From contig CAVQYR010000002.1 of assembly GCA_963718235.1 (NCBI GenBank), positions 544,001 through 608,000 of the forward strand: 64,000 nucleotides of DNA. The letters run 5' to 3'. The DNA is from an uncultured Actinomycetota bacterium (lineage in GTDB: Bacteria; Actinomycetota; Actinomycetes; JAHEKZ01). A program made the translations under genes and the position numbers. This document shows positions 4,287 through 9,995 of this stretch, one piece after another (the first letter of the stretch is position 1; the number at the start of each line of letters is the position of its first letter). The notes below the pieces were generated by a model that worked only from the letters and a program-made list of their open reading frames with translations, had not been told where the DNA came from and searched no databases.

Positions 4287-4949
4287 GTGATGACTGACGA
4301 CACTCACGACACCCACGACGCTGACGGCGCTGCGGGCGACCCGGCCGACGAGAGCATCGAGCAGCGCACGGCTCGCTTCGAGCGCGACGCGCTGCCCTAC
4401 CTCGACCAGCTCTACGGAGCGGCCCTGCGGATGACGCGCAACCCGGCCGATGCCGAGGACCTCGTCCAGGAGACCTTCGCCAAGGCGTTCTCGGCCTTCC
4501 ACCAGTACCGCGACGGCACCAACCTCAAGGCCTGGCTCTACCGCATCCTGACGAACACGTTCATCAACACCTACCGCAAGAAGCAGCGGGAGCCCCAGCA
4601 GTCGATGGCCGAGGAGGTCGAGGACTGGCAGCTCGCCCGGGCCGCCGAGCACACGTCGGCAGGACTGCGCTCGGCGGAGGCGGAGGCCCTCGACCGGCTG
4701 CCGGACAGCGACATCAAGGATGCGCTGAACGAGCTCAGCGACGACTTCCGGCTCGCGGTCTACCTCGCCGACGTCGAGGGCTTCGCGTACAAGGAGATCG
4801 CCGACATCATGGGGACACCGATCGGCACGGTCATGTCCCGGCTGCATCGGGGGCGCAAGCAGCTGCGCACCCTTCTGGAGGACTACGCGATCGAGCGAGG
4901 GCTCATCCCCGCGACCACCGGCGGGGACCAGGAGGAGGAGGGGTCATGA
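4287..4949 (+). CDS. sigH: ECF sigma factor SigH/SigR (thiol-oxidative stress); an in-frame upstream GTG at 4209 may give a longer isoform
   Basis: [46 protein letters not shown] and [23 protein letters not shown]; followed by a ZAS anti-sigma gene. Confidence 0.95.
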
Positions 4950-5227
4950 GCTGCGGGAACCCGCACGCGGTCGACTGCTCGAAGGTGCTCGAGACCGTCT
5001 ACCTCTACCTCGACGGCGAGATCGACCACTCCGAGCTCGGGGTCATCCGAGAGCACCTCGACGAGTGTTCGCCGTGTCTTCGCGAGTACGGAATCGAACG
5101 CGAGGTCAAGCAGCTGGTGGCCCGTAGCTGCTGCGAGACGGCGCCGGAGTCGCTGCGGCACGCGGTGATCGCGCGGATCCGGGTGGTGCGCACCGAGATG
5201 ACCCAGGTGGAGTTCCGCGCCGACTGA
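4946..5227 (+). CDS. rshA: Zinc-binding anti-sigma factor RshA/RsrA
   Basis: HxxxCxxC motif (HLDECSPC); ATGA overlap with sigH. Confidence 0.93.
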
Positions 5228-5265: not shown

Positions 5266-5340
5266 TCAGGCGGCCGGCCGGTTACCGTGGTTGGCCTTCT
5301 TCTTCTTGCGGTCCTTGCGCTTGCGCGAGCTCTTGCTCAT
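5266..5340 (-). CDS. 50S ribosomal protein bL37 (24 aa, MSKSSRKRKDRKKKKANHGNRPAA); not in the ORF track
   Basis: Manual translation. Basic peptide with ANHGxRP closely resembles mycobacterial bL37; GGAG RBS upstream; sits next to rshA. Confidence 0.9.
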   Translation of the reverse strand: MSKSSRKRKDRKKKKANHGNRPAA

Positions 5341-5443: not shown

Positions 5444-6202
5444 TCAGCCGGCGATCCGGCGGTTGAGGGCATCGAGCACCGAGCGGGCTACCGCGTCGGC
5501 CTCGTCGCCTCGGATGACCGCGCTGCCACTGGTCGACTGTGGGCCGATCCGCGGCACGTTCACGACGAGCACGGTCAGGGCCACGCTGTGGATCCCGGCC
5601 TCGATCACCGTGACCGACTCGACCTCGGTCGGCAGCCCCAGCAGCGGCTCGAGGGCCGACAGGGTCGCCTGGGCCACGAGTCGATGACGGTAGGAGGCGG
5701 CTCCGGACCCTGACGCCGCGCCGTCGAAGGTCTCGTCGCCGAAGGCCAGTCGAACCACGGCCTCGGCCTCTGCGCCGGACGTGCGGACCGTCAGCGACGT
5801 GATTGCCGGCCGCACGGTCTCCTCCGAGTCAGCCTCGACGACGTCGTCGCGGACCGGCACCGGACCGGCCTCCTGAGACTCAGCCGCGAGGACGCTCGGT
5901 GCTGTCGGGGTCTGCGAGGTCGGCGCCTCGGCCGGGGGCCGGGTCGCCCCGTTGGGCGGGGTGGCGTCCTCCTCGCCGATCTGGACCACGCTCACGATCC
6001 GGTGGTCCAGATCGATGTCGTAGCGGGTCAGCGCCACCGACTGGACGTCGCGGACGAGCTGCTTGGCGGGCTTGCCCGGGGACGCCAGCACGTGGACCTC
6101 GGTCGGGACCGCTTTGGGGTCGGTGACCACACTGACCGCGCGGATCCCGGGGATCTGGCGCAGCGCGTCCTCCAGGGCGGGCAGCAGACGCAACGTGGGC
6201 AT
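5444..6202 (-). CDS. Conserved hypothetical two-domain protein next to the HD-GYP genes
   Basis: N-domain with EVHVLA..KQLVRDVQS..DLDHRIVSVVQ, a Pro/Ala linker, and an alpha/beta C-domain ending ARSVLDALNRR; coding-like GC3. Confidence 0.8.
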   Translation of the reverse strand: MPTLRLLPALEDALRQIPGIRAVSVVTDPKAVPTEVHVLASPGKPAKQLVRDVQSVALTRYDIDLDHRIVSVVQIGEEDATPPNGATRPPAEAPTSQTPTAPSVLAAESQEAGPVPVRDDVVEADSEETVRPAITSLTVRTSGAEAEAVVRLAFGDETFDGAASGSGAASYRHRLVAQATLSALEPLLGLPTEVESVTVIEAGIHSVALTVLVVNVPRIGPQSTSGSAVIRGDEADAVARSVLDALNRRIAG

Positions 6203-6256
6203 GAAGGTCAGTCTCTCTCGGGTATGGGTCACGGGGTTGCGCATCGGTCAGACAGG

Positions 6257-6673
6257 TCAGGGGTCGCTGGGCAGGACGGTGAGCCCGGCGACCAGGAGCC
6301 GACGGGGGGTGGGGTCGTAGGGAGCTTCGTCTCCAGCGTCACCCTCGTCGTAGGACGGCCCCTCGTCGAGGACGTCCTCGGTGGGTTCCTGGTCGAGGAT
6401 GTCCTCGTCACGAGCCTCGGCGCGGGCCTGTTCGAGGCCGAGCATCGCGGCCGGAACGGCCGTACGGGCGTGCTCGACGAGCCCTCGCACCGACTCCCGC
6501 TGGAGCCAGCGCAGCCGCCGGGCGGTGTCGGGGTCGAGGTGACCGCTGGCCACCGCCGCCGCCACCTCCTCGTCGAAGCGCTGGGTGGCGACGTCGTCAC
6601 GGACGTCCAGGAGACCGGCGACGAGGTCGCCGTAGGCGGCCGTCCTGGCCGAGCTGCGAGCCGTGTCGATCAC
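6257..6673 (-). CDS. Hypothetical protein with acidic C-terminal tail
   Basis: GTG at 6673 preceded by a GGAGG RBS; coding-like codon usage; same strand as the 5444 gene. Confidence 0.65.
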   Translation of the reverse strand: MIDTARSSARTAAYGDLVAGLLDVRDDVATQRFDEEVAAAVASGHLDPDTARRLRWLQRESVRGLVEHARTAVPAAMLGLEQARAEARDEDILDQEPTEDVLDEGPSYDEGDAGDEAPYDPTPRRLLVAGLTVLPSDP

Positions 6674-6810
6674 CGGATGTGCCTCCCCCCAACCGTCGCC
6701 CGCCCGCGCAGCGGGCACGCCGCGTGAGGACGAGGCTAGGGCAGCGAGATCGCCGCTGAGCCAGGGCCGGGTACAAGCCTGCGCCATTCGGGTTGGGGCT
6801 AGTGCTTGAT

Positions 6811-6839
6811 GACTATTTCTTATAGTCCAGAAGGACTAT
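6811..6839. promoter_or_regulatory. AT-rich overlapping palindromes (GACTAT / ATAGTC / GACTAT), candidate operator
   Basis: gactat(6811-16)-ttctt-atagtc(6822-27) and atagtcc(6822-28)-agaa-ggactat(6833-39) in a divergent intergenic region. Confidence 0.5.
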
Positions 6840-6944
6840 GTGCGCACGACGGTTCGGGATCGACCTGCCCGGTGTCTTGACGGCACCACCCGTCACACCC
6901 TTCACTTCCGTTCGGTGGCATGTCTGATTTATCCCAGGCAGCCC

Positions 6945-6976
6945 CGGCACAGCACGACGGCACAGCACGACGGCAC
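6945..6976 (+). repeat. 13-bp tandem repeat CGGCACAGCACGA x2.5
   Basis: Copies at 6945-6957 and 6958-6970, partial copy at 6971-6976. Confidence 0.85.
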
Positions 6977-6987
6977 TCACCACAACT

Positions 6988-7238
6988 GCACAGGGCGAAG
7001 CCAGGATCGGCAGCATTGGGGGTTCGACCCCGTCGTCCTCGTGACGACGGGCACGAGCTTTGTTTCATCCAGCGGAGCGAATCGCGCGCGAGCCAACCAG
7101 CGGGGCTCGTGACACTCCAACGGAGGTGATTCCCACCGATGAGCAAGATCGTGGCAGCTGTCGAGCGTGCCCTCGCCGCAGGCGCAGGGTGGGCCTGGAA
7201 CTGACCCCACAGCTGCCGATCCTGGTTTCGCCCTTTGC
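6988..7238 (+). ncRNA. Candidate structured leader RNA; a long-range stem encloses the small peptide ORF
   Basis: 6992-7014 pairs with 7212-7234 (22 Watson-Crick pairs plus one G.U on the + strand). Inner stems are 7029-7037/7043-7051 and 7052-7058/7105-7111. Confidence 0.6.
7139..7204 (+). CDS. Small 21-aa peptide MSKIVAAVERALAAGAGWAWN (candidate signalling or leader peptide); not in the ORF track
   Basis: GGAGGTGA Shine-Dalgarno at 7122-7129, ATG at 7139, TGA at 7202-7204; immediately upstream of the HD-GYP operon. Confidence 0.75.
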   Translation: MSKIVAAVERALAAGAGWAWN

Positions 7239-7260
7239 GCCTTCCCCAGGAGTGGAGCCG

Positions 7261-8715
7261 ATGCAGGCACTGCGCCCCGCGGCGCGCGGCTACATCGCGG
7301 TGGTCATCACCATGGCCGCCGTGGCTGTCGTCGTGTCGATGGCGGCCGCCCTCGGAGTCATCGACGTCGAGATTCTGCGCATCTCCGAGGTTGACGATTT
7401 TTGGCAAACGATCATCGTGCTCGCCCCCGTGTACGTCCTCGCCACCTCCACACCGTCGGCCATGGCGGTCCCGGTGGCCATGATGGCGAACGTCCCGGTG
7501 CTCTTCGCGGCCTACCTGATCGCCGGTCCGGCCGCCGCCGTCCTCGTCGCCGCGTCCGGGCTCCTCGCGTTCACCTCGGTCCCGTGGGTCAAGCGAGGTT
7601 TCAACACCGCCCAGTTCACCCTGATCGGCCTGGGCGCCGGCCTGGTCTACGTGATGCTCGACGGCCCCTTCGCCGAGGACTTCGCGGCGGCCAACTTCGG
7701 ACGGGACATCCTGGTTCCGGTCGTCGCCTCCAACGTCGCAGCGATGGTGCTGAACGGGCTCCTGCTCTTCGGCGTGCTCCGTACCGCCGAGGGACTGTCC
7801 TTCCGGTCCATGTGGCGCACCGTCATCGCCGGCTCGGCCGTGCCCTACCTCGGGTACGGGCTGTTCGGACTCCTCATGGCGGTGCTGTGGTCCGTCGGCA
7901 GCGGGTTCGGTGCGACTCTGGTGCTGCTTCCGCTGCTCATCGCCCGCTGGGCGTACCGGCAGTACGCCGAGCAGCAGCGGGCGTACGAGGCGACCATCGC
8001 CGCGATGGTGCAGGCGGTCGAGACCAAGGACCACTACACCCGTGGACACAGCGAGCGCGTGTCGCGAGCCGCAGTGATGATCGCCCGCGTCCGGGGCATG
8101 ACGGCGGACCGGGTGAACGCCCTGCGCTACGCCGGGATCCTGCACGACGTCGGCAAGCTGGGTGTGCCCACACGTTTGCTGCAGAAGACCGGCCCCCTGG
8201 CCGACGGTGAGTACGAGCGGATCAAGATGCACCCGGTGCACGGCACCGAGATGGTTCGTGGGATCACCTTCCTGGAAGAGGCGTACGAGGGGATCCTGCA
8301 CCACCACGAGCGCCTCGACGGTCTCGGCTACCCCAGCGGTCTGAAGGGCATGGACATCCCCGAGTTCGCCCGCGCCATCGCCGTCGCCGACGCCTTCGAC
8401 TCGATGACGTCGACCCGTTCGTACCGAGGGGCTCGCAGCGTCGAGAAGGCGCTGGAGGAGCTGGACCGCTGGAAGGGTACCCAGTTCGACCCGGCCATGG
8501 TCGACGCGCTCGTGACGGCATTGGAGCGCGAACCGTGGAAGACCACCGCGGTCGTCGTCGACACCGCTGACGGCGAGACGCCGGTCGCCGCGAGCTTCGA
8601 CCACGACGACCCGGGCGCCCCGATCCCACTTGGCAGCGACCAGGCCCTGGCTGCGGCCGCCGAGGAAGCCGAGAGCGCCCAGGTGTCGGCCCTGCGACGT
8701 CAGGACGACGCATGA
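7261..8715 (+). CDS. Membrane-bound HD-GYP c-di-GMP phosphodiesterase with multi-TM sensor (MASE9-like, inferred)
   Basis: About 7-8 TM segments with a KRGFN motif, then ETKDHYTRGHSERV, ILHDVGK, HHHERLDGLGYP and VADAFDSMTSTRSYR. RBS AGGAG/GGAG before ATG 7261. Position matches the Streptomyces HdgA/HdgB pair after sigR-rsrA (recalled). Confidence 0.93.
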   Translation: MQALRPAARGYIAVVITMAAVAVVVSMAAALGVIDVEILRISEVDDFWQTIIVLAPVYVLATSTPSAMAVPVAMMANVPVLFAAYLIAGPAAAVLVAASGLLAFTSVPWVKRGFNTAQFTLIGLGAGLVYVMLDGPFAEDFAAANFGRDILVPVVASNVAAMVLNGLLLFGVLRTAEGLSFRSMWRTVIAGSAVPYLGYGLFGLLMAVLWSVGSGFGATLVLLPLLIARWAYRQYAEQQRAYEATIAAMVQAVETKDHYTRGHSERVSRAAVMIARVRGMTADRVNALRYAGILHDVGKLGVPTRLLQKTGPLADGEYERIKMHPVHGTEMVRGITFLEEAYEGILHHHERLDGLGYPSGLKGMDIPEFARAIAVADAFDSMTSTRSYRGARSVEKALEELDRWKGTQFDPAMVDALVTALEREPWKTTAVVVDTADGETPVAASFDHDDPGAPIPLGSDQALAAAAEEAESAQVSALRRQDDA

Positions 8716-9995
8716 GGTCGCGCTGGTTCGACTCCTCGGCGGGCGCGACGCTCGTGGTGATCGGCGCGCTCCTGCTCGTGGCCGGTGCGGTGATGTCGAC
8801 GAGCGTCCAGGGTCTCGTCCAACCGATGATCGCCCTGGCCTTCGGCGGCTTCGTGGCGGTCGGTGAGCTGATCCGGATCAACCTGCCGGGAGACCGGGTG
8901 ACCGCTCCGCTGGGCGCGGCGGGTGCTCTGGGCTACGCCCTCCTGGAGAGCTTCGACGGGGTCCCGACGCAGTACGACGCCATGCAGGTGATCGCCGTGG
9001 TTGCGGTGGGCATGCTCGTCGGCACCGTGCCGCACGTGGCGGTGGGCCAGCCTCCCCGGCTCGAGGCGATGGCCCGCCGGATCCTCACGACGGCCTTCGC
9101 CGCGGCCATCTTCCGGCCGCTGTACACCTCCGGTGCCCTCGACGGGCTCGAGACGCCGGACTGGCAGCTGCCGGCGTTCATGCTCGTCGTCGTCGCGTGC
9201 AGCGGTTTCGTCGACGCCCTGCTCGCGGCACTGATCCGCAGCAGCCGCGAGCGGCTTCCGTTCCTCGCCGCACTTCGGGACGAGGGGCGCGCCTTCGTGG
9301 GGATCGGCTCGGTCATCGGTGCCACCGGCGTCCTGATCGCGCTGGCCGCCGAGGTCATGGGCTACTGGGCGCTGCCCATCTTCGCGATCCCGCTGCTCAT
9401 CGCCCAGTTCTCCTTCCGCCGGTACGCAGCGATCCGAGCCACCTACACCCAGACGATCCGGGCACTGTCCCGCGTCACCGAGGTGGGTGGGTACACCGAG
9501 ACCGGGCATGCCCGCCGGGTCAGCCAGCTCGCCCTGGCGGTGGGGCGCGAGATGGGGCTGTCGGAGTCTGCCCTGATCGACCTGGAGTACAGCGCCCTCA
9601 TGCACGACATCGGCCAGCTGTCGTTGTCCGACCCGATCCCCGGCGGAGCGACGGTCATGGTCGCGCCGGACGAGCAGCGCCGGATCGCCGGCCTGGGTGC
9701 CGAGGTCATCCGCAAGACGGGGGTCCTGGACCGGGTCGCGGTGATCGTCGAGTGCCAGAGCGAGCCCTACCGCCGCCCAGGACAGCCCCTGGACGCCGGG
9801 ATCCCGCTGGCGAGTCGGATCATCCGGGCGGTCAACGCCTACGACGACCGGGTCGGCGGGTTGAACGACCTCGAGCACCAGCTTGCCGCGCTCGAGCAGC
9901 TGCGGCTGGGCATGGCCTACGACTACGACCCACGGGTCGTGGAGACCCTGAGCCGGGTCGTGGAGCGCAACTCCCGGCTCGGCGTCCAGCCCTAG
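8712..9995 (+). CDS. Second membrane-bound HD-GYP-like protein, catalytically degenerate
   Basis: Multi-TM N-terminus. TGHARRV and LMHDIGQ are retained, but HHE..DGxGYP is replaced by CQSEPYRRPG. ATGA coupling to the first HD-GYP gene. Confidence 0.88.
   Translation: MRSRWFDSSAGATLVVIGALLLVAGAVMSTSVQGLVQPMIALAFGGFVAVGELIRINLPGDRVTAPLGAAGALGYALLESFDGVPTQYDAMQVIAVVAVGMLVGTVPHVAVGQPPRLEAMARRILTTAFAAAIFRPLYTSGALDGLETPDWQLPAFMLVVVACSGFVDALLAALIRSSRERLPFLAALRDEGRAFVGIGSVIGATGVLIALAAEVMGYWALPIFAIPLLIAQFSFRRYAAIRATYTQTIRALSRVTEVGGYTETGHARRVSQLALAVGREMGLSESALIDLEYSALMHDIGQLSLSDPIPGGATVMVAPDEQRRIAGLGAEVIRKTGVLDRVAVIVECQSEPYRRPGQPLDAGIPLASRIIRAVNAYDDRVGGLNDLEHQLAALEQLRLGMAYDYDPRVVETLSRVVERNSRLGVQP

Follow-up and report, generated by a model that had tools for sequence, protein, structure and literature searches.

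A very small open reading frame (ORF) of 21 codons is described here in a stretch of 64,000 nucleotides (nt) from an uncultured Actinomycetota bacterium (contig CAVQYR010000002.1, positions 544,001 to 608,000 of the forward, or +, strand), hereafter called the window, where it precedes a gene for a membrane HD-GYP phosphodiesterase. The small ORF is under coding constraint and its synteny with the HD-GYP gene is strict; judged from the comparison of sequences, it is a real conserved gene. It is enclosed by a long-range duplex, P1, which exists together with a shorter helix, P2, in RNA of the + strand, and RNA that matches the inside of P1, the ORF through its stop codon included, appears enriched over the flanks in metatranscriptome contigs. 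These features may be read together as a micro-protein partner for the HD-GYP enzyme that is translated from a processed, stable leader RNA, a composite reading that is held tentatively, at a probability of about 0.4. The ORF had been pointed out by a first-pass annotation made from the letters of the same DNA; the RNA structure around it is new relative to that annotation.

Coding constraint on the small ORF

The first-pass annotation had claimed a 21-codon gene with a strong Shine-Dalgarno (SD) sequence, and its coordinates, product, SD and 9-nt spacer were all found as claimed (Table 1), with the ORF conserved. In relatives the SD reads AGGGGTGAT or GAGGAGTTGAT and its spacing to the ORF is constant. 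It had also been held that the gene is masked by a spurious extension of the HD-GYP frame, and this was borne out: the ORF listing gives a 551-amino-acid (aa) frame from TTG 7060, overlapping the small ORF in a different frame, and the extension is considered spurious because the start common to relatives is ATG 7261 (M1 is kept in at least 90% of 33 aligned homologues), preceded by an SD of its own. There are 69 ORFs of at least 20 aa in the 5.5 kb around the locus, and the size of the small ORF by itself is within chance expectation; it stands above chance because it is conserved across loci. None of the Pfam and NCBIfam models matched the peptide, and in a collection of about 15 billion predicted proteins the six exact peptides that were tested are absent.

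A nucleotide-similarity search of 61 related genomes matched the region within the family of the window, in 18 of the 19 remaining genomes, and with E 8e-6 in one genome from a different family, the other matches being short and close to the threshold. The 21-codon ORF is found at the same place in all 20 loci (the window and these 19); a loss of frame and length in relatives had been named beforehand as a refuting result. The codon table of the 20 loci shows that third positions change most and that replacements are conservative (I/L/V/F, A/S), and all three stop codons, TGA, TAG and TAA, are used. A degenerate DNA pattern of the peptide, scanned through 401 genomes of the class, matched 30 of them, and the reversed pattern, used as a control, matched none. 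When the pattern was applied to one genome per species across 185,579 species, 40 loci were obtained, of which 39 belong to uncultured Actinomycetes known from metagenome-assembled genomes (MAGs), some labelled Nanopelagicales or Sporichthyaceae. The remaining one, in Escherichia coli (L079), is a chance match without start or stop. In this pattern-chosen set, which provided the substitution-rate check that the first-pass annotation had proposed for homologous loci, the ratio of nonsynonymous to synonymous differences (pN/pS) is 0.47.

Because the first set had been selected by the peptide pattern itself, a second set of loci was built blind to the ORF. Metagenome contigs were scanned for the RNA motif that precedes the ORF, giving 80 loci of at least 119 stretches; one false match (L159), a chance hit, and 10 loci with less than 130 nt downstream were set aside, leaving 69. 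A closed ORF of 13-25 codons is present at the expected place in all 69, most often with 21 (32 loci) or 20 codons (21 loci), further with 22 (six), 13 (six), 25 (three) and 23 (one). The start codon is ATG in 62 loci and GTG in seven; peptide-like features were used in choosing the start, and the presence of a closed ORF is independent of that choice. For the 45 distinct 20- and 21-codon ORFs of this set, the mean entropy at the three codon positions is 0.84, 0.75 and 1.18, and synonymous changes account for 0.30 of the differing codons when read in frame vs 0.15 and 0.12 in the shifted frames; the coding statistics of the pattern-chosen set are similar. Eight residues, M1, K3, V8, E9, L12, G17, W18 and W20, are invariant in 33 sequences.

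It could be argued that the open frame is not a gene and is only a by-product of conservation at the RNA level, since it lies inside a strongly conserved structured RNA and the pN/pS in the set fetched with the peptide pattern is only moderately low. This explanation is very improbable. Three-base periodicity and an excess of synonymous changes are found in the ORF-blind set, all 69 loci retain the start, the SD spacing and an in-frame stop, few consensus base pairs fall inside the ORF, and its length variants hold the frame. A separate observation concerns locus L239 (G236:C8), where the small ORF continues beyond the usual stop (MKKIVSAVEQFLQTTGRLEVV...); the copy may be frameshifted or decayed, or the extension may come from a sequencing error.

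The first-pass annotation had also linked the small ORF to the HD-GYP gene, and in every locus with enough flank this linkage was found to be strict. A same-strand HD-GYP homologue lies downstream in 38/38 genome loci with sufficient flank (L091 has 457 nt only), in 49/49 metagenome loci with at least 1000 nt of flank, in 27 of 28 loci from the class (the exception, L245, has a short flank) and in 10 of 10 more. In the family of the window the HD-GYP gene starts 56-62 nt past the stop of the small ORF and its SD lies outside P1. The product of the gene matches HD_5 (PF13487) with E 1.9e-37, and the HHExxDGxGYP residues H348, H349, E350, D353, G354, G356, Y357 and P358 do not vary among 33 sequences. 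Among solved structures its nearest relatives are 5z7c, a 3'3'-cyclic GMP-AMP (cGAMP) phosphodiesterase (6.6e-39), and 4mcw (2.4e-33), and multiple hydrophobic segments are present in residues 12-227.

RNA structure and transcripts of the leader

The + strand of 6980-7250 folds at -146.9 kcal/mol with a z-score of -6.8, and the - strand reaches a z-score of -4.1. For comparison of structures, 39 sequences were aligned (the window and L063-L102 without L079 and L080), and RNAalifold predicted two helices on this alignment, P1 and P2. Standard pairs occupy 96.6% of cells vs 84.8% in shuffles, a value reached by 0 of 500 shuffles; when partners are slid, at most 46% of cells are paired. Changes on both sides are present at 18 of 30 pairs, in 158 cells vs 55 in shuffles, and the covariation score is 0.395 vs 0.183 in the control. 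In P2 alone, 8 of 11 pairs have changed on both sides. One-sided changes in P1 and P2 give G-U or U-G pairs, which would be A-C mismatches on the other strand, and it is for this reason that the helices are assigned to RNA of the + strand.

P1 is present in 38/38 genome loci that have the upstream flank (L080 ends 32 nt ahead of the ATG), in 57 of 59 eligible metagenome loci, and in 27/28 and 10/10 further loci of the class. Its arms measure 19-44 nt among loci, and 97.8% of cells are paired in helix 1. The core of the duplex, GGGAUCGGCAGC with GCUGCCGAUCCC, is otherwise invariant, and distant families compensate, for example with GGGACCGGCAG paired to CUGCCGGUCCC. The region at 7024-7067 differs among relatives in length and sequence, and three copies of AGCGG, single-stranded or in a loop, show almost no variation between families. 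The stop codon of the small ORF is separated by 0-10 nt from the 3' arm of P1 for the window and most of its family; among lineages, the start of the arm ranges from 6 nt ahead of the stop codon's end to 82 nt past it.

Several other identities of the element were considered and rejected. A mobile element, such as a miniature inverted-repeat transposable element (MITE), does not agree with an element that is single-copy in its own genome, has the same orientation to the HD-GYP gene everywhere and has mismatches that are + strand G-U pairs. An invertible DNA switch was dismissed as well, no recombinase being found nearby and no flipped copies among the loci. A transfer-messenger RNA (tmRNA) or tRNA-like element was not found by ARAGORN in 6000-8500, and the small ORF carries an SD and ATG of its own. 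The HD-GYP SD could pair with the 3' arm of P1 in the window (UCCUGG/CCAGGA, by eye), a possibility that relatives do not share. When both strands of 6000-8500 were searched against Rfam 15 at E <=10, with c-di-GMP-I/II, 6S and tmRNA included, no family matched. Four weak, unrelated matches were returned, all far under the gathering score and none within 6982-7244; the nearest is sR-tMet at 7256-7326, with 20 bits vs a gathering score of 50. Another, resembling a Guanidine-II riboswitch, lies at 6364-6407 inside the coding region of a 176-aa protein (17.3 bits vs 32, E 1.9) and is most likely due to chance.

Six metatranscriptome runs hold a small share of the sampled words, and four of them were compared with 6600-8000. 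Each of the four gave one contig, of 168-187 nt, lying wholly inside 7015-7205, and all of these share one mismatch and one insertion. Near-identical contigs over 6600-7014, over 7206-8000, over the P1 arms or over the HD-GYP gene were absent from the four runs, and the other pieces in 6600-8000 are just 33-nt matches with loose ends, coming from other organisms. A uniform carry-over of DNA is disfavoured, because the coverage is confined to the inside of P1. An artefact of the assembly graph is unlikely as well, because the two arms share no 31-mer, mismatches keeping their longest perfect run to 14 nt (by eye). The contig covering 7015-7148 bears sequencing-adapter letters at both ends; if these are the usual Illumina read-1 and read-2 ends, and if the library was of the common stranded type, this fragment would be a weak hint of + strand RNA.

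Table 1. Positions in the window of the small ORF, of the elements of its leader RNA and of neighbouring genes
Feature	Position	Strand	Remarks
Small ORF	7139..7204	+	ATG 7139-7141 to TGA 7202-7204; 21 codons and stop; product MSKIVAAVERALAAGAGWAWN
Extended SD GGAGGTGA of the small ORF	7122..7129	+	9-nt spacer 7130-7138 before the ATG
Near-invariant ACAACT	6982..6987	+	just 5' of the long duplex; C2, A3, A4, C5 and T6 invariant or nearly so
P1 5' arm	6988..7021	+	inverted repeat with 34-nt arms, 88% complementary, 183 nt between arms
Variable-region hairpin, terminator-like, with U-rich tail	7024..7067	+	hairpin 7024-7056; columns 36-173 of alignment A1 variable
Single-stranded motif AGCGGAGCG(G/A)AT	7071..7082	+	39/39 sequences match; consensus of 118 distinct sequences
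P2 hairpin	7086..7113	+	7086-7094 pairs with 7104-7113; AGCGG in loop; 3' strand ends in invariant GTGAC
P1 3' arm	7205..7238	+	in the window begins directly after the stop codon of the small ORF
Stretch covered by metatranscriptome contigs	7015..7205	.	contigs 7022-7205, 7030-7205, 7018-7203 and 7015-7148, one per run
Conserved box TTGACG ... GTCACACCCTTCACTTCCGT	6878..6912	+	MAFFT alignment of 150 nt 5' of P1, 39 sequences
Membrane HD-GYP phosphodiesterase gene	7261..8715	+	own SD AGGAG 7248-7252
p176, 176-aa protein	6257-6787	-	divergent from the element
p266, 266-aa protein	5444-6244	-	divergent from the element

Possible roles of the peptide and the leader RNA

According to the preferred reading, the small ORF would be a translated micro-gene carried on the conserved structured leader RNA of the HD-GYP operon. 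The ends of this leader would pair as P1, enclosing the variable hairpin, an AGCGG-rich strand, P2, the SD and the ORF. P1 would serve as a processing and stability element, most likely cut by a double-strand-specific ribonuclease (RNase), for example RNase III; substrates of this enzyme have a duplex of about 20 bp or more, and P1 has about 25-35 bp. Cleavage and trimming would free a compact RNA of about 190 nt, accumulating far above the flanking mRNA. Such a stable and highly expressed micro-mRNA would be uncoupled from the HD-GYP mRNA, and the peptide could be produced in excess over the enzyme. With a predicted N-terminal amphipathic helix and a C-terminal Trp anchor, the peptide would act in trans on the HD-GYP enzyme encoded downstream, serving as its small regulatory subunit at the membrane or close to it. 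The role of a partner of the membrane domain fits because the helix is amphipathic and is followed by G-x-G-W-x-W, and because some lineages have hydrophobic 25-mers.

The peptide occurs in several versions, among them MKKIVSAVEQFLQSGASWKW, MAKITSIVEKILIGASLHWN, a 13-aa form MFKMLLEPGVSWR and a hydrophobic 25-aa form MKKIAAVFGGLTALFMSAGAGVYWG; all of them have M-x-K close to the start and a Trp placed 1-3 residues ahead of the stop. The C-terminal G-W-x-W is conserved within the subfamily; in the wider family the ends are, for example, SWR, HWN, NWT or KWGG, and only one C-terminal Trp is retained across all variants. The N-terminal half is conserved at least as well as the C-terminal piece. 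The 13-codon version, MFKMLLEPG(V/I)(S/T)WR, retains both ends of the peptide in frame and is found in two loci of family f10 (L252, L253) and in the metagenome loci L114, L128, L137, L152, L157 and L171; in the f10 loci with it the long duplex, with 36-39 nt per arm, and the HD-GYP gene are both preserved. In the common variants the hydrophobic moment of residues 2-14 is 0.59-0.62, a value reached by 0.5-4% of shuffles, and the hydrophobic stripe is formed by I4, V5, V8, F11 and L12, ahead of G-x-G-W-x-W. The mean Kyte-Doolittle hydropathy of the peptide of the window is 0.59, with E9 and R10 in mid-sequence, and that of the 25-aa variants, which are hydrophobic over their full length, is 1.02.

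Several points weigh against the reading of a micro-protein partner made from a processed leader. The peptide of the window itself is weakly amphipathic, with a moment of 0.47 that is matched by 10.6% of shuffles, and the 13-aa variant is very short for a protein partner. The strong conservation of AGCGG and of the P1 core is not accounted for by the role of a mere mRNA. With regard to the transcripts, the four runs represent four studies that possibly belong to one campaign, and their contigs are assembled and of low depth (word depth 3-7), so that strand and true ends are not visible in them. A GC-rich duplex could be under-represented in cDNA and in this way mimic processing. Finally, the 3' ends of the contigs in the window, 7203-7205, fall where the stop codon gives way to the P1 3' arm, so that an end linked to the stop is indistinguishable from one linked to the duplex.

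The main rival reading is a cis-acting upstream ORF, whose translation, possibly with pausing at W-x-W-x-stop, would remodel the leader, the peptide being idle after its release. The ribosome would open P1 or a nearby structure and so set the translation or stability of the HD-GYP mRNA. The ORF does sit in the 5' leader of the HD-GYP gene in every examined locus, its amino acids are constrained and its length is nearly fixed, as in arrest peptides, and each variant places a Trp close to the stop. A terminating ribosome could reach the 3' arm of P1 in the window and in most loci of its family, where the arm closely follows the stop, and the RNA contigs end at the stop codon. Nevertheless, in lineages where the arm lies up to 82 nt past the stop, the terminating ribosome cannot reach P1 because of that distance. 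The HD-GYP gene has its own SD outside P1, neither a terminator nor an alternative pairing was found, and the conserved N-terminal M-x-K-I and amphipathic stripe are not usually needed by arrest peptides. A cis-acting role of this type is possible but doubtful.

A more specific form of control in cis, attenuation through the two Trp codons, had been offered by the first-pass annotation and was not supported. The whole peptide is constrained, M1, K3, V8, E9, L12 and G17 being invariant beside W18 and W20, and a single Trp is common to all variants. No terminator follows the small ORF, the single terminator-like site, at 7038-7057, being upstream of it; likewise, no U-run follows P1 and no expression platform was found. 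The HD-GYP gene has an SD of its own, and the distance from stop to structure varies from -6 to 82 nt. The same annotation had proposed a precursor whose C-terminal piece is a signal, and had mentioned similar peptides in other phyla. An exported signal, or a precursor similar to those of peptides that are made ribosomally and modified post-translationally (RiPPs), with an active Trp-rich C-terminus sensed by the membrane domain of the HD-GYP protein, would agree with the conservation of G-W-x-W within the subfamily and with a neighbouring HD-GYP protein that has a multi-pass membrane domain without a known ligand. Such a role is nonetheless most improbable: no signal peptide was found in the product of the small ORF, and within about 2 kb in the examined loci no family of modifying enzymes, proteases or transporters, and no gene for maturation or export, is present among the conserved neighbours (p176 and p266 have no family match). 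Moreover, the N-terminal half is conserved as well as or better than the supposed signal, and the C-terminal motif is lost across the wider family. Similar peptides in other phyla were not supported by the scan of 185,579 species, where 39 of the 40 loci are Actinomycetes MAGs and the other is the chance match in E. coli; nor did the RNA motif have a real case in 186 genomes from other classes of the phylum.

An RNA-centred function may exist alongside the coding function. If the leader were primarily an RNA that binds a ligand or protein, for example a riboswitch-like sensor of cyclic dinucleotides or a sponge for an AGCGG-binding protein, or else a small RNA (sRNA) acting in trans, the ORF would be the second function of a dual-function RNA. 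This would explain the three nearly invariant AGCGG copies, which an mRNA-only view does not, and it agrees with the covariation of the helices and with an RNA that appears discrete and enriched in metatranscriptomes. Many riboswitches for cyclic di-GMP (c-di-GMP) sit upstream of genes for cyclic-dinucleotide phosphodiesterases, and the element precedes a gene for a cyclic-dinucleotide phosphodiesterase in a similar manner. However, nothing in Rfam matched, the riboswitches for cyclic dinucleotides included, and an aptamer around a whole translated ORF would be unusual. AGCGG has no conserved pairing partner in the 420 nt downstream (at most 32 of 128 loci per 20-nt bin), and an expression platform was not found. 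An RNA-centred role as the primary one is therefore rated unlikely. A bolder proposal, to which a similarly low probability is assigned, is an undescribed cyclic-dinucleotide module in which an abundant RNA, excised in the manner of rRNA, would deliver a micro-protein controlling the HD-GYP enzyme and its AGCGG part would bind a second factor or ligand. If this were true, RNA and peptide would form a two-pronged switch on the turnover of c-di-GMP or cGAMP.

Genomic setting, distribution and known systems

Upstream of P1, at a variable distance from it, the divergent intergenic region contains a conserved box (Table 1) with a small inverted repeat that shows compensatory changes between lineages (TGACGG/CCGTCA vs GCGAA/TTCGC). 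From its sequence, the box could be a candidate promoter, operator or 5' hairpin. No sigma-70 consensus promoter was found in 6760-7300, and SigR-like and extracytoplasmic function (ECF)-like readings of the box were rejected as a poor fit by eye. Between the box and P1, in a variable stretch, a perfect 13-nt tandem duplication (CGGCACAGCACGA x2) is present at 6945-6970.

The two genes that diverge from the element, p176 and p266, have no relative in Pfam, NCBIfam or the PDB. They are syntenic with it in 36 and 35 of 37, 20 and 26 of 27, and 49 and 53 of 61 loci, respectively, and may belong to the same functional unit. Downstream, a second membrane HD_5 protein is encoded on the + strand at 8712-9995, with a 4-nt overlap with the stop of the HD-GYP gene and a weaker match (E 1.5e-8); it is without the GYP signature by eye and may be a degenerate paralogue in the same operon. 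Further away, 4946-5227 (+) encodes the mycothiol-system anti-sigma-R factor RsrA (TIGR03988, 98.7 bits). Among loci with sufficient flank, RsrA lies upstream of the element by about 1.4-1.9 kb in 12 of 37, 1 of 27 and 2 of 61. A 24-aa ORF at 5266-5340 (-), MSKSSRKRKDRKKKKANHGNRPAA, matches the NCBIfam model ribo_Myco_bL37 with 36.8 bits (cut-off 30) and, on the strength of this match, is taken as a second very small real gene nearby.

In the class, a shortened RNA motif was found in 73 of the 401 genomes, one of them the unpublished genome G050, and the reversed-pattern control gave 4. The motif is present in 18 of 19 genomes of family f1, 14 of 22 of f17, 9 of 12 of f25, 5 of 8 of f10, 3 of 8 of f19 and 3 of 17 of f20, and was not found in families f3, f12 and f29, with 22 genomes each. 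The sampled f10 genomes are small (1.0-2.5 Mb). Inspection of 42 loci from this class-wide scan showed that 38 are real, and 4 chance matches (L224, L236, L262 and L263) were set aside. In the other classes of the phylum the lone match, L264, is regarded as chance, since a long ORF contains it and the neighbourhood lacks an HD-GYP gene.

Among the dual-function small RNAs with a small-protein gene are SgrS/SgrT, RNAIII/delta-haemolysin, SR1/SR1P and AzuCR. The element resembles them in being a compact, structured and apparently abundant RNA in which an SD precedes a conserved ORF about 20 codons long; unlike them, it is the 5' leader of one fixed gene, a base-pairing target is not known, and a long-range duplex encloses the entire ORF. 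Regulatory leader and arrest peptides are represented by TnaC, trpL and the Erm leaders; in TnaC the peptide sequence is conserved and Trp matters. The short leader ORF, the conservation of peptide sequence and length, as in TnaC, and the importance of Trp are shared with this group. In contrast to the group, no terminator/antiterminator pair was found, and the downstream SD is the gene's own and free, with a variable distance from stop to structure; compared with trpL, the peptide is constrained beyond its Trp codons.

The stalks cut by RNase III flank rRNAs and the mRNAs of phage T7. As in these stalks, the flanks of an apparently accumulating RNA pair over more than 20 bp and the RNA-seq contigs cover the inside only; unlike in rRNA, the enclosed RNA is a small mRNA, and cleavage is here a matter of inference. 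MgrB-PhoQ, SafA-PhoQ and AcrZ-AcrB are examples of small membrane proteins that regulate membrane proteins, and here too the gene of a tiny protein neighbours that of a membrane signalling enzyme, with hydrophobic 25-mers in some lineages. Unlike MgrB, SafA and AcrZ, most versions, that of the window included, are amphipathic and charged (E9, R10), and their length is probably insufficient for crossing a membrane. With c-di-GMP riboswitches, which are placed ahead of GGDEF/EAL/HD-GYP genes, the element has in common a conserved structured leader upstream of a gene for a cyclic-dinucleotide phosphodiesterase, and it differs from them by the absence of an Rfam match at E <=10, by the ORF inside it and by the lack of a detectable expression platform. 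In the text of a recent review of dual-function RNAs (PMC12612679, 2025), the terms Streptomyces, Mycobacterium, Actino*, c-di-GMP and phosphodiesterase do not appear. No literature on such an element or on four fragments of the peptide was found in the sources covered, subscription journals and supplements being outside the scope.

Leader ORFs, small-protein genes and dual-function RNAs are known kinds, and it is the architecture, a covarying long-range duplex around a whole ORF before a gene for a cyclic-dinucleotide phosphodiesterase, that appears undescribed. Genes of 13-25 codons are invisible to annotation, and the element is a clean example of coding and structural constraints within one short transcript. 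It adds a candidate abundant structured RNA to those of environmental metatranscriptomes and, being always placed ahead of a cyclic-dinucleotide phosphodiesterase, it offers a testable handle on the control of this enzyme in Actinomycetes.

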